Part shown: positions 24,138-33,697 of the stretch, piece after piece | Layout: each line of letters starts with the position of its first letter | Numbering within the stretch: the stretch's first letter is position 1 | Assembly: GCA_965208105.1 (NCBI GenBank) | Contig: OZ242318.1 | Span: 1,376,001-1,440,000 of the forward strand | Direction of reading: 5' to 3' | Length of the DNA stretch: 64,000 bases | Source of the DNA: Candidatus Latescibacterota bacterium | GTDB lineage: Bacteria > Latescibacterota > UBA2968 > UBA8231 | Notes under the pieces: generated by a model | Database searches by the model: none | What the model saw: the letters and a program-made list of their open reading frames with translations, nothing else | Told to the model about the DNA's origin: nothing | Program-made: the position numbers and the translations under genes

Positions 24138-25076
24138 ATGATCCGCTTCCTTTTCCCGCTTGCCTGCACCCTTCTGTTTCTGGCTCCGCCACTTTCCGCC
24201 GCATCGGGCTACGCGGGTGAGTTCCTCGCCCTTGGCGCCGGCGCCCGAGCCCTGGCCCTGGGCGGCGCCTATGTGGCCATCGCCGACGACGCCACCGCAG
24301 GTTACTGGAACGCGGCTGCCCTCGCCACCCTCACGGGACGCCGGGTCCACCTGACCCACGCACGCCGGTTCGCTGGATTGGTGCAACACGACTACCTGGC
24401 CCTGGCGCGTGCCGGCCAGCGCGTCCACGGGCTCGCCGTAAGCCTCCTGCGCATGGGCGTGGCCGATCAGAAGGAGACTGTCCTGCAGGATCCAGGAGGC
24501 TCTCTGGGACCAGACAACCGGCCCCTGGTTTCCTCCACCTTCAGCAGCTCCGACTACGCCGTGTACCTTTCGGGCGGACACAGGCTCTCCCGCGGCGTAT
24601 CTGCCGGCGCAAGCCTCAAACTGATCTACCGCAGCATCGGAAATTTCAGCAGCGCCTATGGCCTGGGGCTCGACCTGGGACTCCATTACCGCCTGCGCCC
24701 CGAAATCACCCTGGCGCTCAGTATCAGGGACGTTACCACCACTCCCCTTTCATGGAACACCGGTACCACCGACCGGATCCAACCATCAATCCTGGCCGGC
24801 ATCGCCTACTCCCGTCCTTTCATGGGCGGCCGGACCATCTTTTCCCTTGCTACCAGGCAGGGAGGAGATGCCGAGGACCATTCCGGGTCGAAGCCCGTCA
24901 ACGCCGGTCTCGAGTACCGGTACGAACAGGTCGCTCTGCGGGCCGGCATGGAAGAAGACAGTCCAGCCTATGGGCTGGGTTTGATCCTGCGCCGTCGTTT
25001 CGAGCTGGACCTCGCCCGCTTCGACCACTACGAGCTCGGACACACCTATCATTTCTCGGCCGGTGTCCAGTTCTGA
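24138..25076 (+). CDS. PorV/PorQ-family (FadL-like) outer-membrane beta-barrel
   Basis: Signal peptide, FLALGAGARALALGGAYVAIADDATAGYWNAA, G.GLDLG, terminal Phe. Confidence 0.8.
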   Translation: MIRFLFPLACTLLFLAPPLSAASGYAGEFLALGAGARALALGGAYVAIADDATAGYWNAAALATLTGRRVHLTHARRFAGLVQHDYLALARAGQRVHGLAVSLLRMGVADQKETVLQDPGGSLGPDNRPLVSSTFSSSDYAVYLSGGHRLSRGVSAGASLKLIYRSIGNFSSAYGLGLDLGLHYRLRPEITLALSIRDVTTTPLSWNTGTTDRIQPSILAGIAYSRPFMGGRTIFSLATRQGGDAEDHSGSKPVNAGLEYRYEQVALRAGMEEDSPAYGLGLILRRRFELDLARFDHYELGHTYHFSAGVQF

Positions 25077-25977
25077 TCGACCGGCGGTCGGCGGGGCACC
25101 GACCCGCTGCGGCTACGTCGCCCTGGTCGGGCGGCCCAACACCGGCAAATCCACCCTCTTCAACGCCTTTCTCGGCCAGCCTCTCTCGATCGTCACCTCC
25201 AAGCCCCAGACCACGCGCAGCCGCGTGCTGGGGATCTTGACCCGCCCGCGAAGCCAGATCATCTTCCTGGATACTCCGGGCCTCCTGGAACCCAGCTATA
25301 AGCTCCACGAGAGCATGGAGCGCCAGATCTTCATCGCTGCCCGCGAGGCCGACCTGGTACTGCTTCTCATGGATGCCTCACGGCCCCGCGACGGCCGCGA
25401 CCTCATCCGCCGCTTTCTGGAAAAATCCCGGGTTCCTCTCATCGCGGCCCTCAACAAGATCGATCTGCTCACCGAGGGGCAGGTTCAGGCGCAACGAGCA
25501 CAACTTCGAAGCGAACTGGGCTTGAAGAATCTGCTGCCCCTTTCCGCCCTGGAGGGGGAGGGAGTCGATGATCTTCTCGAGAACGCCGAAAGGCTTCTGC
25601 CCAGCGGCCGGAAGCTCTACCCCGACTCCATGGTCTCCGACCAGCCCGAGCGCTTTTTCGTCAGCGAATTCATCCGCGCCGCCGCCTTCAACAATCTGCT
25701 CGATGAGCTGCCCTACGCCCTCAACGTCGCCGTCGAGAGCTTCGCCGATCGCCCTGAAAAGACCTATGTCCAGGCCTTGATCTTCGTCGAGCGGGAAAGT
25801 CAGAAGGGCATCGTCATCGGACGCAAGGGCAGCCTGCTGCGAAAAATCGGACGCGAGGCCAGGCTTCAGATCGAAGAATTTCTCCAGCGTCCGGTCTATC
25901 TGGACCTGTGGGTGAAGGTGCGCCCCGACTGGCGCAAGAGAGAGAGAGACCTGACCGAGTTCGGATACATGCAGTAG
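25063..25977 (+). CDS. era: GTPase Era
   Basis: GRPNTGKST, PQTTR, DTPG, NKID, KH domain (SQKGIVIG), LWVKV..DW. Confidence 0.97.
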   Translation: MSSSDRPAVGGAPTRCGYVALVGRPNTGKSTLFNAFLGQPLSIVTSKPQTTRSRVLGILTRPRSQIIFLDTPGLLEPSYKLHESMERQIFIAAREADLVLLLMDASRPRDGRDLIRRFLEKSRVPLIAALNKIDLLTEGQVQAQRAQLRSELGLKNLLPLSALEGEGVDDLLENAERLLPSGRKLYPDSMVSDQPERFFVSEFIRAAAFNNLLDELPYALNVAVESFADRPEKTYVQALIFVERESQKGIVIGRKGSLLRKIGREARLQIEEFLQRPVYLDLWVKVRPDWRKRERDLTEFGYMQ

Positions 25978-26126
25978 CTGCGGAGCCCGCGCTCCAGGAC
26001 GCGGCGGCGCCCCGATCCAGCCAAAGAGGGCTTTCGGCAATATGCGAGACTGAAGGGAGGCGGCCGCGGAGGGAATGGCGGGAGCATGTCCCCAGTCGAG
26101 TTCACCCAACAGGAAAGGAATTCTCC

Positions 26127-27458
26127 ATGAAGGTTCTCGTCGTCGGCAAGGGAGGCCGCGAGCACGCCCTGACCTGGAAGATCGCCCAGAGTCCCAAAGT
26201 TCAGCGCATCTACGCCGCCCCGGGCAGTCCGGGAATGGCCCAGCACGCCGAGTGCGTCGACATCCGGGTGGACACGCCCATTTCCAACCTTGAAGAGCTG
26301 ACGTCCGAAATCGGGCGGCTGCGGCAGTTCGCCCTCGACCAGCGCATCGACCTCACCGTGGTGGGACCGGACGATGTCCTCAGCGCCGGCATCGTGGACC
26401 GCTTCGCGGAGAAGGGCCTGAAGGCCTTCGGTCCCACGGCGGCGGCGGCCCGCATCGAAAGCGACAAGATTTTCGCCAAGGACCTGATGGTGCGCATCGG
26501 CGTGCCCACGGCGAGCTACCGCACCTTCAGCGACAGCGCCGCGGCCGCGGCCTACGTGCGCCAGCGCGGTTGCCCCATCGTGATCAAGCCCAAGGGGCTG
26601 ACTGCAGGCAAGGGAGTGGCGGTTGCCCGTACGGAAGAGGAGGCCTTCCAGGCCCTCTCTTCCATGATGGAGGAAGGTGCCTTCGGCGCAGCTGGGGAAG
26701 AGGTCGTCGTGGAGGACTTCATGGAGGGCGAGGAGGCCTCCCTCTTCGCCCTTACCGACGGGGAGAAATTCCTCACCCTCGCACCGGCCCAGGATCACAA
26801 GGCCGTCCACGAAGGAGACAAGGGGCCCAATACCGGCGGAATGGGCGCCTATGCCCCGGCTCCGCTGATGACCCCGGCGCGGGTCAGGGAAGCGCAGGAG
26901 CGCATCATCCGCCCGGTGCTGGACGAAATGCGCCGCCTCGGCTGCCCATTCCAGGGAGTACTTTACTGCGGGCTGATGCTGACGGATTCAGACCTCAAGG
27001 TGGTCGAGTTCAACAGCCGTATGGGCGACCCCGAAGCCCAGGTGGTGCTTCCCCTTCTCAAGAACGATTTCGTGGAGGTTATCGAAGCGGTCTGCGACGG
27101 CCGCCTGGACCAGGTCAGCATCGAAAACATCGATGCCGCCGCGGTGTGCGTCGTCGCCGCCTCGGAAGGCTACCCCGGTGCCTACGAAACCGGCCGTGAG
27201 ATCCGCGGCCTCGAGCGCCTGCAGGGGCGTGAAGACCTGCTCGCCTTTCACGCCGGCACCATGCTCGAGGACGGCCGTCTGCTGACCGCCGGAGGGAGGG
27301 TCATGGGGATTACCGCCATCGCCGCCGATATCCCGGCGGCCGTGCGCAAGGTCTACGCCGGCATCGAACAGATATCTTTCGATAATCTCTACATGCGCAG
27401 GGACATCGGCCACCGCGCCTTCCCCGGGATAACCTCCGCGCGGCCCCCCGGGACCTGA
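26127..27458 (+). CDS. purD: Phosphoribosylamine-glycine ligase
   Basis: MKVLVVGKGGREHAL, AQDHK, GPNTGGMGAY, EFNSRMGDPE, HAGT, RRDIG. Confidence 0.97.
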   Translation: MKVLVVGKGGREHALTWKIAQSPKVQRIYAAPGSPGMAQHAECVDIRVDTPISNLEELTSEIGRLRQFALDQRIDLTVVGPDDVLSAGIVDRFAEKGLKAFGPTAAAARIESDKIFAKDLMVRIGVPTASYRTFSDSAAAAAYVRQRGCPIVIKPKGLTAGKGVAVARTEEEAFQALSSMMEEGAFGAAGEEVVVEDFMEGEEASLFALTDGEKFLTLAPAQDHKAVHEGDKGPNTGGMGAYAPAPLMTPARVREAQERIIRPVLDEMRRLGCPFQGVLYCGLMLTDSDLKVVEFNSRMGDPEAQVVLPLLKNDFVEVIEAVCDGRLDQVSIENIDAAAVCVVAASEGYPGAYETGREIRGLERLQGREDLLAFHAGTMLEDGRLLTAGGRVMGITAIAADIPAAVRKVYAGIEQISFDNLYMRRDIGHRAFPGITSARPPGT

Positions 27459-27482
27459 GCGCGGAGACCCGCCGAGGCTCGA

Positions 27483-28304
27483 TCAGAAGCAGAAAATGTA
27501 GAAGTCCTCGCGCGGACAGGATAGGGGGATCACCGTCGTCCCCAATTCATCTGCCAGGCGCTCTACCCGCAAGGCGTAATTCCGTTTCATCCCCATGTTC
27601 CTGCCGCAGAACGATCTGCTCGGAAAAGAGGCGACCACGTATGGCGCACCCGACTTCCTGAGCAGCTCCAGCGATGCGTCTCTCCGGGTGTGTTCCAGGC
27701 AGGGAATGGACTGGAACAAAAAAACCACGTCGCCTTCGAGGGCCGGGGTCCGGGTGAGGATGTCCGTGCACTGCGCACCTCCGGCCTGGTTCAGGCGCGC
27801 AAAGAAAGTGTTTATGCACGAGACCAGCCGGTGATCGATGTCATAGGCGCGATAGTTGACGCAGGGATCCACGTCCATCCAGGGCAGCGCGAAAGGATTG
27901 AATCCGCAAGCCAGGTCGACAATGGAACGGGGCCTGCCGATGGCGCTCCAGATCTCCCCGTAGAGCCCTTCGAGGAAGGGCAGGCGCTCGGCGGTGGACC
28001 TGTGCTGGCGGAGCAGGTTGCGGCAGGCCGCAAGCCTCGCTTCGGCGGAGACGGAGGCGGACAGCCCATCGATCAATTCTTCCACCTCGGCGAAATCGAC
28101 CTGGTCGAAATAGGCTCCGTATACCTGATGCAGTTTGCTCTTGGCGGCCTTCAGGGTCTTCCTGAATCCCCTGTTGCGAAGCATGGACCAGGCCGCCACC
28201 CGGACGAGAGTCTCCTCGCACAGGTGCCGGTATTTCCTGCTCTGCCTCAAATTACGGACAAGTCTGGAATTATCGATACTATTGGTTGTGCTCTGGACAG
28301 GCAT
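27483..28304 (-). CDS. ArmA/Rmt (FmrO)-family 16S rRNA m7G1405 methyltransferase homologue
   Basis: SRKYRHLCEET, KLHQVYGAY, HRSTAERL, DLACGFNP, YDID, SFPSRSFCGRNMGMKRNY and C-terminal EDFY, all collinear with RmtB/Sgm motifs. Confidence 0.88.
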   Translation of the reverse strand: MPVQSTTNSIDNSRLVRNLRQSRKYRHLCEETLVRVAAWSMLRNRGFRKTLKAAKSKLHQVYGAYFDQVDFAEVEELIDGLSASVSAEARLAACRNLLRQHRSTAERLPFLEGLYGEIWSAIGRPRSIVDLACGFNPFALPWMDVDPCVNYRAYDIDHRLVSCINTFFARLNQAGGAQCTDILTRTPALEGDVVFLFQSIPCLEHTRRDASLELLRKSGAPYVVASFPSRSFCGRNMGMKRNYALRVERLADELGTTVIPLSCPREDFYIFCF

Positions 28305-28325
28305 TGGGCACCTGACTAGGTGACA

Positions 28326-29426
28326 CTAAGCCCTTTTGAAAAATTTCTCGATATAACTCAACAGCTTGTTGTAGAAATACAGGTTATGCACCGTGAAAAG
28401 ACGTTGCGCCAAGGGCTCGTTCATCCGGTGCAGATGGCGAAGATAGGCCCTCGTATACTGGCGGCAGCACCTGCAGCCGCAATTCTCGTCGACGGGAGAG
28501 AAATCTCTGCAGTACCTCTGGTCCGCCATATGGAGGTTGAAATAGAAAGATCCGCCCATCAACCTGGCCGCGCTCACTTCTCCATCGAATACGTACAATC
28601 TCCCGCGGCGGGCTTCCCGGGTGGGGATCACGCAATCGAACAGGTCATATCCCCACTGGTGCGCTTTTACGATGTTTTCCGGTCTTCCTATCCCCAGGGC
28701 GTGCCTGGGCGCGCCGGACGGAAGCAGCTCGCCCACCAGCTCCACCATTTCCACCAGGCCCCCATCGCGGTCGATGGGCCAACCCCCGAAGCCATAGCCG
28801 TCGAAGCCCATCTCCACCAGGCTCTCAGCGCAGGCCCGGCGCAGGGCTTCGTCGCTTCCACCCTGCACCACCGCGAACAACAGGGGCCGCCGGGGCGCTG
28901 CCGCTCCGTTTTCCAGCAGGCGGCAAAATTCTTCCCGGCACCTTCGGGCCCATTCGATGGTGTAGGTGACGCTCCTTTCCTGCTCTGCCCTGGCGGCGCG
29001 CCCATGGGTGCAGTAGTCGAGGCAGAATATGATATCCGCTCCCATGCGGACCTGCTTGCGGATACAGATCTCGGGTGACCACCTCCTCTCCCGCCGTCCC
29101 TTTCCCATGCGGTAGGTGATCCCCTGCGCGGCAATCCTCCCGGTCATTGACCCCTGGTCCTTGCGGTTGAGCACGGACAGAATCTGAAAGCCCCCGGAAT
29201 CCGACAGAATGGGCCCGTCCCACCCGGTGAACCGATGGATGCCCCCTGAGGCCGAGATAACCGAAGCGCCCGGGTCGGAGGCCAGATGAAGAGAGTTCAC
29301 CATGAGGCCGCCCGTCCCGCACCCGAGGAGGTCCTCCCGGTCAATGGTCTTCACCACACCCCTCGTTGCATCGGGGATGAATGCTGGCAGTGCGAGACGT
29401 CCGTGCCCGGTCTCTATCTGCGGCAA
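28326..29426 (-). CDS. tgt: tRNA-guanine transglycosylase-like protein (divergent base pocket)
   Basis: DSGGFQ, LDYCT, VQGG, DLFDCVIPTR, zinc site CGCRCC...HN. AAGGAG RBS before the TTG start. Confidence 0.88.
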   Translation of the reverse strand: MPQIETGHGRLALPAFIPDATRGVVKTIDREDLLGCGTGGLMVNSLHLASDPGASVISASGGIHRFTGWDGPILSDSGGFQILSVLNRKDQGSMTGRIAAQGITYRMGKGRRERRWSPEICIRKQVRMGADIIFCLDYCTHGRAARAEQERSVTYTIEWARRCREEFCRLLENGAAAPRRPLLFAVVQGGSDEALRRACAESLVEMGFDGYGFGGWPIDRDGGLVEMVELVGELLPSGAPRHALGIGRPENIVKAHQWGYDLFDCVIPTREARRGRLYVFDGEVSAARLMGGSFYFNLHMADQRYCRDFSPVDENCGCRCCRQYTRAYLRHLHRMNEPLAQRLFTVHNLYFYNKLLSYIEKFFKRA

Positions 29427-29473
29427 AATCCCTTCTCCTTTTCCCCCTCGAGGAGATGGTCCGACCTGTTTGA

Positions 29474-29502
29474 TTGACAGGCATCGAGCCTGCGGATATA
29501 TT
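29474..29502 (+). promoter_or_regulatory. Sigma70 promoter of folB-folK
   Basis: TTGACA-N17-TATATT. Confidence 0.7.
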
Positions 29503-29528
29503 CAGCCGAACTGCCTGCGAGCCTTCCC

Positions 29529-29894
29529 ATGCCCTCCGATATCCTGCGCCTCCGCAACATGCGCTTTTTTGCCCACCACGGCCTCTTCGCCACCGAAGAA
29601 GAACTCGGCCAGCACTTCGAGGTCGACGTGGAACTCTGCGGCGATTTCTCCGCGGCCGGCCGCGAAGATTCCCACGCCGAGAGCCTGGACTATCCCCGGG
29701 TCTACGAGATCGTCCGCGGGGTGGTCACTCAGCGGCGGTTCAAGCTGGTGGAGGCCCTGGCCGAGCACATTGCCCGGGCGGTGGGCGAGACCTTCGCACC
29801 CATTGACCTGACCGTGCGGGTGCGCAAGCCCAATCCCCCGCTCGACGCTCACTTCGACGGAATCGAAGTGGAGCTGCGTCGCTCCTATGCCTGA
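29529..29894 (+). CDS. folB: Dihydroneopterin aldolase
   Basis: FFAHHG...EEELGQHFEVD, LDY, LVEALAE, RKP. Confidence 0.95.
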   Translation: MPSDILRLRNMRFFAHHGLFATEEELGQHFEVDVELCGDFSAAGREDSHAESLDYPRVYEIVRGVVTQRRFKLVEALAEHIARAVGETFAPIDLTVRVRKPNPPLDAHFDGIEVELRRSYA

Positions 29895-30414
29895 ACGAGC
29901 CTTCATCGGCATGGGGTCCAACCTGGGGGACCGCCGCGCCTTCCTCGAAGCGGGCCTCACCGCCCTGGCCGACCTCGAGGGAGTGATGCCCATTGCCCTT
30001 TCCTCCCTCTACGAAACGGCGCCCCAGGGATACCTGGACCAGCCCATGTTCCTCAACGCGGTCCTCTCGGTGCAAACGGAGCTTCCCCCCCCGGAGTTGC
30101 TCCTGGCAATGCAGCAAATCGAGGACAGCCACCAGCGCCGGCGCACGATTCACTGGGGACCCCGCACTCTCGACCTGGATCTCCTGCTCTACGGCTCGCG
30201 CCGGGTCAACAGCCCGGATCTGATCCTGCCCCACCCGTGCATCACCACCCGGAGCTTCGTCCTCGTTCCCCTCTGCGAGATCGCACCCGGACTCCGCCAC
30301 CCCTGCACCGGCAAGTCCTTCAGGTCCTACTGCGACGAACTCGAACCTGCCCGGGAGATCTGCAAGGCAGGGGCCCTCCGCGACTTGCCCGCAGGCTCCC
30401 GCGAAGGCCGCTGA
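29887..30414 (+). CDS. folK: 2-amino-4-hydroxy-6-hydroxymethyldihydropteridine diphosphokinase
   Basis: GSNLGDR, SSLYET, FLNAV, WGPRTLDLDLL, LPHP. Confidence 0.96.
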   Translation: MPERAFIGMGSNLGDRRAFLEAGLTALADLEGVMPIALSSLYETAPQGYLDQPMFLNAVLSVQTELPPPELLLAMQQIEDSHQRRRTIHWGPRTLDLDLLLYGSRRVNSPDLILPHPCITTRSFVLVPLCEIAPGLRHPCTGKSFRSYCDELEPAREICKAGALRDLPAGSREGR

Positions 30415-30454: not shown

Positions 30455-32098
30455 CTATCTCAGCAGACTGATCTTGCGGGCCACCTGCTTCGGTCCACTG
30501 CGGAGGAGGACGAGGTATGTCCCGCTCGCGAGTTGGCCGCCGCCCTCGTCCAGCCCGTCCCACGCGACCTGATGAGTCCCGGGCGGTAACAGCCCGCGGC
30601 GCAACAGGCGGACCCGCTGCCCCAGACTGTTGTAGAGCGACAGTTCCACCTCTTCGGCAGAGGACAGGCTGAAGGGGATAAGGACGCGGCGATTGAAGGG
30701 ATTGGGGAAGACGGGAGCGAGGACCGGTCCCAGGGGCAAGGTCTGGTCCGAGGACGCGACCACGGCCGTTGGGACCCTTGCCGACAGCTCGAACTCACGG
30801 CCCGGGGACGCGCCGCGTCCCACGATCAGTACCAGGCTGTCCACATTCACCACCTCCGCCACGCCCCCGCCCGAGGAGTCCAGCTCGACCGCAGCCAGGT
30901 CCCCCATCCCTTTCCTCATCGCGTAGGTCCAGACATGGAAGGATCCCTCCCGCTCTGCGGCGAATTGAAAAGCCAGACTTCCCTTGTGGCGGAAGAGGAC
31001 GTAGATGCTTCCCCACTCCCCTGCGATTGCGCCTCCTATCCCCTCGATGGGCAGGCCGGGAGCCAGGACAGGCAAGACGCGCCGGCCCCTGAGAGCGCCA
31101 TATCCGTAGTACTTCTCCTCCACCGCGTAGTTGCCTACAATCCACCGCCCCCAGACCTCCTTGAACCCCCCTTCCCCTTCGGAGCCGTCGAGAACCGCCT
31201 CGATCCCGTCGATGCCGTTTCCCGGCTCCCGGACCAGCGCCCGGATAGATCCCGGTCCAAATTTTTCCGCCAGGAAGGACATGAAGAGATAGGTCGCTCC
31301 GTAGTTGTCCGCCCTGTTCTGCCAGTTGGTGAGACTCACCTGTGGGTCCATCAGAAACGCAGGCACCGCCGCCGGGTCGGCGCCGGGGTATCCGGCCAAC
31401 TCCTCGGCATAGCCGGAGAGCCCCTCATCGACCCAGGATTCCTCGTCCTCGTCGTGGGACCAGTGGATGAGGTGCTGGAACTCGTGCGCCAGGGTCCCAC
31501 CGGCCAGGTAGCGCCGCCGGCGAACCGTGGCCGCGTCCAGGTACACAATATCGCGGCGCAGGCGGGTATCGGGATGTGCCGCAACCCTTGGGTCGAAGAA
31601 CCCGGCCAGGTCGGGACGGTCCGGATTGGGATTGCCCAGGTCCAGAATCAAGATGAAAACGCGCGCATCGCCATCGACGTCGGCCGGCTCCCCGAATGCC
31701 TCGGAGGCCAGGTCATAGATCCCGCGCTCCGCATCCGAGGGCACCGCGTGGTCGAACAGCTCTCCGACGAAGTCCACGTCTACCTGCAGCACCGGCCCCC
31801 CATTGGCGTCCCACTGGGCGCTCTCGACGAAGACATAGCAGTGCTCCCCCGCGTACCTGCAGACGGCCGGCTGCAACGACGATCTGCCGGCGACCACGAA
31901 TTCGCGCTGGCTGCCGACCTCTATGGGATCCTCATCCTGCTGCCCGGCCAGGACCTTGGCGCTGGGCAGGGGGAGCCGCTCCGCATTGCGGCGCAGCCAC
32001 TGGGTTCCACAGACGCGGGCGTCGGCAATGGAAGCGGCCGTGCCCAGAAGGGACAGGGCGACTATCGGAAGGCAGCATCTGAAAATGATCTGGTGCAT
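30455..32098 (-). CDS. Secreted zinc metallopeptidase (M30/M6-like) with C-terminal FlgD-Ig/T9SS sorting domain
   Basis: Signal peptide, LAHEFQHLIH plus WVDEGLS; C-terminal FPNPFN...YNSLGQRVR...WDG..ASGTYL. Confidence 0.8.
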   Translation of the reverse strand: MHQIIFRCCLPIVALSLLGTAASIADARVCGTQWLRRNAERLPLPSAKVLAGQQDEDPIEVGSQREFVVAGRSSLQPAVCRYAGEHCYVFVESAQWDANGGPVLQVDVDFVGELFDHAVPSDAERGIYDLASEAFGEPADVDGDARVFILILDLGNPNPDRPDLAGFFDPRVAAHPDTRLRRDIVYLDAATVRRRRYLAGGTLAHEFQHLIHWSHDEDEESWVDEGLSGYAEELAGYPGADPAAVPAFLMDPQVSLTNWQNRADNYGATYLFMSFLAEKFGPGSIRALVREPGNGIDGIEAVLDGSEGEGGFKEVWGRWIVGNYAVEEKYYGYGALRGRRVLPVLAPGLPIEGIGGAIAGEWGSIYVLFRHKGSLAFQFAAEREGSFHVWTYAMRKGMGDLAAVELDSSGGGVAEVVNVDSLVLIVGRGASPGREFELSARVPTAVVASSDQTLPLGPVLAPVFPNPFNRRVLIPFSLSSAEEVELSLYNSLGQRVRLLRRGLLPPGTHQVAWDGLDEGGGQLASGTYLVLLRSGPKQVARKISLLR

Positions 32099-32143: not shown

Positions 32144-32779
32144 TCAGAACCGCCTGGAGAGCACTACCGCAGCGCGGCCGTCGAATGCGTGAGCTTCCAG
32201 ATTGAATGACGGCCCCCCTTCGTCCTCCCGATCCACCGTGCGGGCAGCGTGAATGGCTGAGAACAGATGGTTGACCGCCACAAGCCCGGTGGTGAAAAGG
32301 GCCTGGCGTGCCGCGCTCTCGCTGGAGTTGCGCAACTTCCGGTAGCGCCGGCGCGACTCCTCCCGGTCCCACTCCCAGAAGAACTCGGGTGAATCCGGGT
32401 AGAGATCGGCATCGGGGCCGTCGCGGTAAAGCGCATAGCGGTTGTGCTGCAGTCGGCTCTCGTAAAACCCCAAATCGTCGAAGTATGCGTCGTTCTTGCC
32501 CCCCGTGCGCGCCCGGGCGTGGTCGGCAGCATAGGCGCGAAAGTGGGTGGCGCGGATGTCCTGGAGATACCGCAGTCCCAGGTAGCCACCCCAGAGCCCC
32601 AACTCGGCCACCCAGAAGCGCCTTGCGCTCGCGTCCTGCCCGGAATAGTGCTGCCCCCACCCGGGAAGCAGCAGGGAGTAGCAGAAGGCGCGGCGCCCCG
32701 ACCTGCCCTCGCTCCACTCCGGGGAGGCCAGGACGGCGATAAGAAAAATCGCGCTGAAATACCTGAGCATGGTTCCCAT
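32144..32779 (-). CDS. DUF5683-like membrane/exported protein
   Basis: SLLLPGWGQHY, NHLFSAIHA; paralogous to the adjacent gene. Confidence 0.65.
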   Translation of the reverse strand: MGTMLRYFSAIFLIAVLASPEWSEGRSGRRAFCYSLLLPGWGQHYSGQDASARRFWVAELGLWGGYLGLRYLQDIRATHFRAYAADHARARTGGKNDAYFDDLGFYESRLQHNRYALYRDGPDADLYPDSPEFFWEWDREESRRRYRKLRNSSESAARQALFTTGLVAVNHLFSAIHAARTVDREDEGGPSFNLEAHAFDGRAAVVLSRRF

Positions 32780-33697
32780 TTAGTAGAAGGGCTTGTAGGC
32801 GGTCACCATGGGCACCTGGCCGCGCACTCCCCGGTGCATGGAAAAGACGAACCGGGTCCGCCTTTCGAGCCTGGCCGCGTCCGCGCCTTCGGACCGCCCC
32901 CGCCCCAAGCGCGCCGCGTCGATGGCACTGAGAAGGTGGTTGATCATAATCACCCCGGCCACGTTGCTGGCCCTCTTCAGCAGCTTGTTGCTGTCGTTGC
33001 GGCGCTCTTCGTAATCCAGCCTCAAATCTGAGATGTAGTTCTCCACCGAGTCTATCTCGGCAGGCAGGACCTCCCGGGGGTCATCGCTCTTGTCCCGGCT
33101 GTCGCGCAGGTCGCTCCAACCCGCCCCGAACTGGTAGTACTTGCCGATGAGCTCGTAGTACTGCTGCTTCTCGGTCTCCCTGCAGCCTTCAATGGCTTCC
33201 GTTACCGCGCCTATGTACAAAGCGGGATTGGCGCTGGCCACGAAAGAACTGCAGGGGAGGCCGTGGGTGATGGAGCTGCGCGAGGTGGGCAGCACCCGCC
33301 ACTCCAGGTAGTGCTGCGGGTTCCAGTTTTCGTCTGCCACAGTGCGAAACTCTTCCTCGATGTCGTTGCCTTCGCCCCTCCAGCTCAAGTACAGCCCCCA
33401 GAGCAGGGCCTCGACCCCGAAGAAGGCCACAGCCCGCTTCTTGCTGCCCATGTAGTACTGCCCGGCCCCCGGCGCCAGGACAGAAAGCAGAAGCGCCCTC
33501 TTCGAGGATTTGCCGCCCTCCTCCGCCGCCGCATCGGCTTCGGGGCCCTCCGTTGCTCCATGCTCGACCCCGCGCATCAGGGCCCATCTCTGCAGGGGAT
33601 GCGGTGACTCTCCGAAAATGCTGGGCAATCCGTCGGCGGCGGCCTGGCTGGCCGCAAGGGCGCCCAGCAGCGCGATCACACTCCAAATTCTCATCAT
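32780..33697 (-). CDS. DUF5683-like membrane/exported protein
   Basis: KSSKRALLLSVLAPGAGQYY, QQYYELIGKYYQF, NHLLSAIDAA. Confidence 0.7.
   Translation of the reverse strand: MMRIWSVIALLGALAASQAAADGLPSIFGESPHPLQRWALMRGVEHGATEGPEADAAAEEGGKSSKRALLLSVLAPGAGQYYMGSKKRAVAFFGVEALLWGLYLSWRGEGNDIEEEFRTVADENWNPQHYLEWRVLPTSRSSITHGLPCSSFVASANPALYIGAVTEAIEGCRETEKQQYYELIGKYYQFGAGWSDLRDSRDKSDDPREVLPAEIDSVENYISDLRLDYEERRNDSNKLLKRASNVAGVIMINHLLSAIDAARLGRGRSEGADAARLERRTRFVFSMHRGVRGQVPMVTAYKPFY

Follow-up and report, generated by a model that had tools for sequence, protein, structure and literature searches.

A divergent tRNA-guanine transglycosylase paralogue paired with an FmrO-type methyltransferase: a candidate module for guanine exchange in 16S rRNA

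Introduction

The stretch of DNA analysed here, hereafter the window, comprises 64,000 nucleotides (nt) of Candidatus Latescibacterota bacterium (contig OZ242318.1, positions 1,376,001 to 1,440,000) and carries two adjacent minus-strand genes, one for a paralogue of tRNA-guanine transglycosylase (TGT) and one for a methyltransferase of the FmrO/Rmt/Sgm type. The question raised by this locus is whether two enzymes whose families act at position 7 of guanine work together and, if so, on which RNA and in which order. A preliminary description of the sequence had proposed that they may be coupled, either writing and then excising or exchanging N7-methylguanine (m7G), or inserting and then methylating a non-standard base, and it named no target RNA. 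We found that the two genes are a conserved, functionally coupled unit, and that their neighbours and fusions point to helix 44 of 16S rRNA. Among the proposed schemes, writing and then exchanging m7G appears to fit the data best, and we give a probability of roughly 0.5 to a role of the TGT paralogue as an rRNA-guanine transglycosylase whose substrate is the m7G1405 produced by FmrO.

The gene pair is laid out as follows.

28326..29426, minus strand: GGWP-type TGT paralogue, 366 amino acids (aa), TTG start; an open reading frame (ORF) with a Pfam TGT match; candidate rRNA-guanine transglycosylase.
28305..28325, minus strand: spacer of 21 nt, the operon junction from the TGT gene to the FmrO gene.
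27483..28304, minus strand: FmrO/Rmt/Sgm-type S-adenosylmethionine (SAM)-dependent methyltransferase, 273 aa; Pfam FmrO match; predicted 16S rRNA G1405 N7 methyltransferase.

The FmrO gene begins 21 nt after the stop codon of the TGT gene on the same strand, and a plausible AAGGAG ribosome-binding site lies 8 nt ahead of the TTG start. The ORFs and Pfam matches agree with the arrangement given in the preliminary description, in which the pair lies between purD and folB-folK. A consensus scan for promoters and terminators found none for the pair itself.

Results

A TGT subfamily with an altered base pocket

The TGT paralogue is a member of the TGT superfamily, with 310.9 bits on Pfam PF01702 (cut-off 26.3) and 293.3 bits on TIGR00449 (cut-off 47.6), and it falls below the equivalog cut-off of bacterial tRNA Tgt (TIGR00430, 293.8 bits vs 306.75). 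The TGT scores in 50 genomes with a module locus were bimodal, with 245–329 bits for the GGWP type and 410–544 bits for the canonical type. When the window protein was aligned to the Zymomonas mobilis TGT, all the motifs that had been named for it were present, namely DSGG, DCV, CxCxxC...H, GGWPID, HALG and PDAT, and so were the catalytic residues D76, D137 and D264 (D102, D156 and D280 in Z. mobilis), Q188, G214-G215 and the zinc site C316/C318/C321/H347 (Tgt Cys318/Cys320/Cys323/His349). The differences from the Z. mobilis enzyme were L231W, A232P, V233I, G234D, E235R, Y258H, L259A, M260L and V45D/G46A, with W216-P217 at the L231-A232 positions and D19 at the V45 position.

To compare the families, residues were numbered by alignment to the Z. 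mobilis TGT, and the 120 best homologues found in a collection of 5.8 billion proteins were set against 21 canonical TGTs from genomes holding both types. The GGWP motif was present in all 120 sequences. Both groups share D102, S103, D156, C158, Q203, G229, G230, D280, R286, R289 and the zinc ligands, and the catalytic and base-binding residues D102, D156, Q203, G230 and D280, as well as the zinc site, are at least 95% conserved in each, which argues for real base exchange. Positions 231/232 are invariant Trp-Pro in the GGWP group vs Leu/Val-Ser/Ala/Gly in the canonical one; Glu235, found in 100% of the canonical TGTs, is lost and its position variable; and position 45 is an invariant Asp vs an invariant Val. 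Besides Y258H, L259A, M260L, Y72L and S214C, the GGWP group has an insert of 14 residues in which Phe-Tyr is conserved. The pocket divergence first noticed in the window protein is therefore a property of the whole group (Trp-Pro in 120/120, Glu235 lost). Judged by their sequences, the GGWP TGTs are a distinct, catalytically intact-looking subfamily of bacterial TGT.

According to a study of Z. mobilis TGT, the 231/232 peptide turns its NH into the pocket when guanine is bound, reaching N7 via a water molecule, and its carbonyl when preQ1 is bound, with Glu235 holding either state; the same source gives an about ten-fold rise in Km for preQ1 in the C158V variant, indicating that Cys158 matters for preQ1 affinity (PMC3660597). 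Cys158 is invariant in the GGWP group. Since proline has no backbone NH and Glu235 is lost, the GGWP pocket should be unable to meet the N7 lone pair of plain guanine, and a carbonyl and an aromatic side chain are what would remain at the 7-position. The invariant Asp at position 45 suggests that the backbone is held differently. Since the edges reading the 2-amino and 6-oxo groups have not changed, the incoming base would be a guanine analogue.

Genomic coupling of the GGWP TGT and FmrO

The preliminary description had suggested asking whether GGWP-type TGTs neighbour FmrO genes across genomes. We therefore surveyed 168 Latescibacterota genomes and an even sample of 301 Chloroflexota genomes, the totals of the latter including one unpublished genome (G254).

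Latescibacterota, 168 genomes: FmrO over the cut-off in 20; GGWP TGT in the same 20; adjacent in 19, in the order TGT then FmrO.
Chloroflexota, 301 genomes: FmrO in 61; GGWP TGT in 59, all with FmrO; adjacent (at most 400 nt) in 53.

The TGT matches of the 20 Latescibacterota genomes had at least 49% identity and 352–858 bits, and all other TGT matches had at most 41% and 241 bits. The twentieth pair (G081) is split across two contig ends. For the two Chloroflexota genomes with FmrO only, the gene lies at a contig edge in G343 and is in fragments in G414. The non-adjacent Chloroflexota pairs are 1.3–6.4 kb apart on one strand in three genomes and on different contigs in three, and the gene order is reversed in seven. 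A GGWP TGT without FmrO was found in neither survey.

Two single loci deserve mention. In G351 (C209:412-1781), both genes of the pair contain stop codons, so the pair appears to decay together. In G254 (C218:2719-4701), both matches fall in one 770-aa open frame, possibly a second TGT-FmrO fusion.

Across phyla, we took the best 80 of 594 confirmed FmrO loci on one-genome-per-species contigs. Their phyla are Latescibacterota, Armatimonadota, Chloroflexota, Hydrogenedentota, Nitrospirota, Acidobacteriota, Thermodesulfobacteriota, Bacillota, Spirochaetota, Eisenbacteria, Poribacteria and Bacteroidota. A GGWP TGT was present in 72 of the 80 loci, from about 12 phyla: directly upstream of FmrO in 68, directly or nearly downstream in two and further upstream in two. 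The spacing in the 68 loci of the same order ranges from −10 to 128 nt, and stop and start codons overlap in L014, L020 and L034. Eight loci have no GGWP TGT (L044, L053 and L066 among them), two of which have less than 100 nt of upstream DNA. FmrO without a GGWP TGT anywhere in the genome was found in G192, G201 and G209, and the FmrO-only cases include a genome of the candidate phyla radiation and an archaeon. Thus, FmrO can stand alone, and no GGWP TGT lacking FmrO turned up in either phylum survey, which is what one would expect if the TGT acts downstream.

A metagenome scan with generic TGT patterns returned 75 canonical tgt loci and five GGWP loci, and FmrO was present in both GGWP loci with downstream DNA (L095 and L096), too few to count. 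Cultured carriers of the module exist, such as Levilinea saccharolytica KIBI-1 (locus L050) and Dictyobacter aurantiacus S27 (locus L073). The recurrence of GGWP in 120/120 homologues and of the pairing in the surveys puts the observation far beyond chance, and the suggestion that the two enzymes are coupled is borne out by two phylum-wide surveys, the cross-phylum loci and gene fusions.

The paralogue is not the housekeeping tgt

The source genome is one 4.85 Mb contig with a marker completeness of 93.9%. Elsewhere in it there is a second, canonical tgt (541.7 bits on Pfam TGT), together with queA, two copies of queC, queE and queF; the queE gene adjoins the second queC at C1:3.735 Mb. The GGWP TGT is a paralogue, not the housekeeping tgt of this genome. 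The search for a second tgt and for que genes proposed in the preliminary description thus turned up both, and the possibility it had raised against itself, an unconserved pairing around the only housekeeping tgt of the genome, is contradicted by the conserved pairing and by the canonical copy. Among the 50 genomes with a module locus, 45 have a canonical tgt and two more have it in two pieces; its near-constant presence implies a supply of 7-deazaguanine and makes salvage possible.

The methyltransferase partner

The FmrO-family protein scored 154.5 bits on Pfam PF07091 (cut-off 27) and 195.8 bits on the NCBIfam Rmt equivalog NF000466 (cut-off 250). It aligns over its full length, with residues 14–270 matching Sgm (129.6 bits) and residues 17–246 matching RmtB, and it also aligns to RmtC and ArmA; identity to the clinical Rmt enzymes is 27–33%. 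The family motifs SRKYR, KLHQVYGAY, HxSTxERL, DLACGxNP, PCLE and SFPxRSxxGRxxGM are visible in the alignment, and the protein has the Rmt-type architecture of an N-terminal helical 30S-binding part and a class I SAM fold. It is the only FmrO gene product of the source genome. Considering this full-length alignment, the motifs and the presence of clinical G1405 methyltransferases in the same module, N7 of G1405 in the 30S subunit is the probable methylation site of the window enzyme. In this family, such methylation gives resistance to 4,6-disubstituted aminoglycosides.

A quick maximum-likelihood tree built from 104 FmrO sequences placed the window protein among 42 environmental sequences, 40 TGT-adjacent ones included, that make up a starred clade, and RmtB1, RmtF1, RmtD2 and RmtG in a starred clade beside it. 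The TGT-less FmrO proteins are scattered through the tree, as expected of losses or contig ends. RmtC and ArmA are on long branches of unsure placement. We also considered whether the clinical Rmt genes are nested inside the environmental clade, which was not supported, the middle forks of the tree being open and RmtC and ArmA being on long branches. The second FmrO paralogues present at some loci form an old clade of their own (97 in the SH-like approximate likelihood ratio test, SH-aLRT); they were seen at L047, L049–L052, L056, L061, L063, L072, L077, L081 and L082, at L048:1206-2111 and at L070:1413-2213. A predicted complex of TGT and FmrO scored 0.07 vs a mark of 0.32, which is no evidence either way.

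16S rRNA context of neighbours and fusions

All ORFs of the 80 loci were clustered and scanned against families. An rsmI gene was found in 34 of the 80 loci, directly upstream of the TGT gene in 29 (TIGR00096 189–233 bits, cut-off 167.9). The 50 module-locus genomes mostly have one TIGR00096 copy each, indicating that the module-adjacent rsmI is the housekeeping gene. The Anaerolineae clusters have a second FmrO paralogue in tandem and an RsmF-like gene after the pair, and the order FmrO2-rsmI-TGT-FmrO occurs in one Cyclobacteriaceae and one Spirochaetales metagenome-assembled genome (MAG). RsmI is the 2'-O-methyltransferase of 16S C1402 and RsmF the enzyme of 16S C1407. In nine Latescibacterota loci, queE is directly upstream of the TGT gene or one gene away (L009–L011, L017, L021–L023, L025 and L032), in the order queE, in some loci a GFO/IDH/MocA oxidoreductase, then TGT, FmrO and thrS.

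A search for longer relatives yielded three types of TGT fusion, every one of them with a GGWP-type TGT.

P0205, 649 aa: TGT-FmrO fusion, on 1 contig.
P0206, 671 aa: RsmH-TGT fusion (RsmH 311.8 bits vs 154.3), on 1 contig.
P0207–9, 707–713 aa: RsmI-TGT fusion, on 6 contigs.

By their NCBIfam family names, RsmH, RsmI and FmrO are all C1402/G1405 enzymes, which work at the top of helix 44. RNA-modifying multi-domain enzymes usually work on one RNA. It is mainly these fusions, taken with this habit of multi-domain enzymes, that would place the TGT on 16S rRNA and supply the target RNA that the preliminary description lacked.

In the source genome itself, there was no TIGR00096 match at E <= 1e-3, even though no gene adjoins the module more often elsewhere than rsmI. 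A motif of 16S positions 1392-1412 with at most two mismatches gave nothing in the source genome, because positions 1409-1412 vary in an ordinary way; the genome does have a 16S gene, its G1405 context is ordinary (...CCGCCCGUCAAG...), and no special target sequence was found in its 1405 region.

The pair on clinical plasmids

Four clinical plasmids carry the TGT gene with an acquired rmt gene.

NZ_KT935446: tgt-rmtD2.
NZ_KX029332: rsmH-tgt-rmtG-(rsmI fragment).
NZ_CP118864: tgt-metallophosphoesterase-rmtB2.
NZ_LC511996: 5'-truncated tgt-rmtE2.

An IS91-family transposase adjoins each of the four arrangements, and PDAT and GGWP are present in both plasmid TGTs that were translated. RmtD2, RmtG, RmtB2 and RmtE2 are annotated as G1405 N7 methyltransferases or resistance genes. 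The metallophosphoesterase gene of NZ_CP118864.1 (L201, 4146-4955) lies between the TGT gene and rmtB2; in NZ_LC511996.1 (L202, 3058-3756), the 5'-truncated TGT gene adjoins the IS91-family transposase and overlaps rmtE2. At E <= 1e-60, the rmtD2-linked TGT matched 32 of 72,556 plasmid records, 12 of the 32 with at least 60% identity.

In two reports, a 'putative tRNA ribosyltransferase CDS' is noted immediately upstream of rmtG (PMC3904158), and an rmtG operon with 'tgt' is mentioned (PMC9311965), a function being proposed in neither. The environments of rmtD and rmtA are reported to have been described in similar terms. The TGT-rmt pairing itself is therefore already visible in the resistance literature. 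A literature search found no published function for the TGT paralogue, subscription papers such as the original rmtD/rmtG environment papers being outside its reach, and as far as this search shows the GGWP subfamily, the strict coupling, the fusions and the likely rRNA target are not in print. The earlier statement that no characterised system of this kind is known thus stands with regard to function and fails with regard to the pairing, which is seen with rmtD2, rmtG, rmtB2 and rmtE2.

To our knowledge, the natural origin and native role of the acquired RmtB, RmtD, RmtE and RmtG are unsettled. The window FmrO resembles ArmA, Rmt and Sgm in its full-length alignment and motifs, and RmtD2, RmtG, RmtB2 and RmtE2 likewise adjoin a GGWP-type TGT; it differs in being chromosomal, among housekeeping genes and outside any antibiotic gene cluster. 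The rmtD/rmtG environment, with its 'tRNA ribosyltransferase' ORF and its rsmH-tgt-rmtG-rsmI operon, shows the same gene pair with the same GGWP and PDAT motifs, but as an IS91/ISCR-captured fragment in which the TGT has been treated as a passenger ORF, whereas the window holds the native chromosomal form. Accordingly, the remark that mobile genes are absent nearby holds for the window, where a scan of 10 flanking ORFs turned up no mobile-element family, and not for the clinical plasmids with their adjoining IS91/ISCR elements.

Flanking genes and origin of the DNA

26124-27458, plus strand: PurD, flanking the pair.
29427..29528, no strand assigned: divergent intergenic region separating folB from the TGT gene, with the AAGGAG of the latter and a plus-strand promoter-like site.
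29529-30414, plus strand: FolB/HPPK, flanking the pair.

The promoter-like match (29474-29502, plus strand) points toward folB. The flank on the PurD side holds LexA, a DUF4147/MOFRL protein and Era, and that on the FolB/HPPK side holds secreted peptidase-like proteins. Era, a 30S-assembly GTPase by its Pfam domains (25063-25977), is 1.5 kb from the pair, probably by coincidence. A secreted-looking 547-aa protein at 30455-32098 (minus strand) has a C-terminal FlgD-Ig-like domain only, and Pfam gave no family for the neighbouring ORFs 32144-32779 and 32780-33697.

The DNA runs covering at least half of window positions 27400-29600 were labelled as sponge or marine metagenomes, except for four runs from a single sample whose organism name is a code; the source organism is probably sponge-associated. 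In one metatranscriptome run, two short contigs (151 and 165 nt, 95–97% alike) covered the FmrO gene and none covered the TGT gene; such contigs cannot show absence, and carry-over of DNA is possible.

Discussion

Comparison with known systems

The nearest relative of the GGWP TGT is bacterial Tgt (Z. mobilis and E. coli, TIGR00430), the enzyme that replaces G34 of tRNA Asp, Asn, His and Tyr by preQ1 and with which it shares the fold family, length, Asp102/Asp280, Asp156/Gln203/Gly230, Cys158, the zinc site and the dimer-interface residues, and the same covalent ribosyl-enzyme base-exchange chemistry would be expected of it. It differs in being a second copy, in the Trp-Pro switch, the loss of Glu235, V45D and the 14-aa insert, in its score below the equivalog cut-off, and in its linkage to FmrO and often to rsmI or rsmH. 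The DpdA DNA-guanine transglycosylases and archaeal ArcTGT, in which base exchange has moved to DNA or to tRNA position 15, are a precedent for retargeting. However, the window TGT is a very weak match to both, with 22.6 bits vs 200 for DpdA (NF041059) and 81.2 vs 350 for TgtA, and the clustered neighbourhoods of the 80 loci showed no dpd or arcS genes. We know of TGT-family base exchange in tRNA and in DNA, and of none in rRNA.

Proposed order of steps and what weighs against it

We propose that the TGT and FmrO could act as a single module on 16S rRNA helix 44, modifying its decoding-centre end. First, the Rmt/Sgm-type enzyme would methylate N7 of G1405 in the 30S subunit. The TGT would then work on the same nucleotide: m7G, which is labile, cationic and well suited as a leaving group, would depart by way of the Asp-ribosyl covalent intermediate usual for TGT. 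Another guanine-type base would take its place, a 7-deazaguanine precursor (preQ1 or preQ0, for instance) being the likeliest. This order is the most economical one because the TGT depends on FmrO and not the reverse, because the NH directed at guanine N7 is lost, and because m7G is such a leaving group. That the enzyme swaps m7G1405 for preQ1 or preQ0, which would make it the first rRNA-guanine transglycosylase and a case of methylation-activated base exchange, is a tentative extension of this scheme.

Several points weigh against exchange at m7G1405. The support for it comes from gene context and sequence. TGT is known to require U-G-U in a loop, and G1405 is in C-G-U inside a helix, in the source genome too. 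The window TGT is still about 38% identical to tRNA TGTs, and neither its zinc subdomain nor its dimer-interface aromatics (F92, Y330 and H333) are lost. QueC is over the cut-off in only 20 of the 50 module-locus genomes, so de novo 7-deazaguanine synthesis is not universal among them and the case that the module needs it is weakened, and the link of queE to the TGT is confined to one phylum. Rmt enzymes alone suffice for resistance, so the TGT is dispensable for methylation. Finally, the fusions on single metagenome contigs are possibly frameshift artefacts; the RsmI-TGT type is replicated on six contigs.

Alternative explanations

The similarity to tRNA TGT over the whole length and the lack of a U-G-U loop at G1405 are also what would be expected if the paralogue were still a tRNA enzyme, acting on another position, tRNA set or base and merely co-expressed with small-subunit rRNA methyltransferases in a translation-tuning operon. 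We consider this unlikely, since co-expression fails to explain the both-or-neither distribution with FmrO (20/20 and 59/59 genomes) or the fusions to three different 16S C1402/G1405 enzymes, and since most module-locus genomes keep a canonical tgt for tRNA. On the rRNA itself, the TGT could act on another nearby G.

The order of the two steps might instead be reversed, the TGT first inserting a non-standard guanine analogue at or near 16S 1405 and FmrO then methylating that base. The TGT-then-FmrO gene order in 68 of the 80 loci would suit such a sequence of events, and so would the second, anciently diverged FmrO clade at the clusters of Anaerolineae and of the Spirochaetales and Cyclobacteriaceae MAGs, which would fit additional methylation. 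It is nevertheless improbable: FmrO enzymes act alone on G1405 in clinical strains, as their annotation and known activity indicate, FmrO occurs without the TGT and never the reverse, a 7-deaza base has no N7 to methylate, and the pocket has no NH to hold unmodified guanine as the leaving base.

Equally improbable is a role for the TGT as an eraser that puts plain guanine back in place of m7G1405, so that the methyl mark is short-lived or off-target methylation is corrected. Guanine is universally available, QueC is not over the cut-off in 30 of the 50 genomes, and the chemistry needs only the kept catalytic residues. However, to encode writer and eraser in a translationally coupled operon, let alone in a single polypeptide (P0205), would amount to a futile cycle; the pocket seems ill-suited to plain guanine; and clinical strains with tgt and rmtD or rmtG are reported to be highly aminoglycoside-resistant.

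A non-catalytic partner like eukaryotic QTRT2, helping the methyltransferases to dock on the 30S subunit, would account for the fusions and the tight linkage to three methyltransferases but is highly implausible, since a docking subunit would be expected to lose D102, D156, Q203, G230, D280 and the zinc site, which are kept in the 120 homologues with the catalytic Asp residues invariant, and since QTRT2 chains match only residues 295-364.

Implications

If exchange at m7G1405 is correct, methylation would both address G1405 and turn its base into a leaving group, and bacteria from a dozen phyla would carry a hypermodified, N7-less purine in the decoding centre. If the GGWP subfamily acts on helix 44, this would be a new rRNA modification chemistry and possibly a new modified nucleotide at the aminoglycoside-binding site. 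The conserved module in Chloroflexota, Latescibacterota, Armatimonadota and other phyla gives the acquired RmtB, RmtD, RmtE and RmtG a native context and explains the 'tRNA ribosyltransferase' ORF that travels with rmt genes; under the proposed scheme, the Rmt resistance genes of clinical strains would be detached fragments of this pathway.

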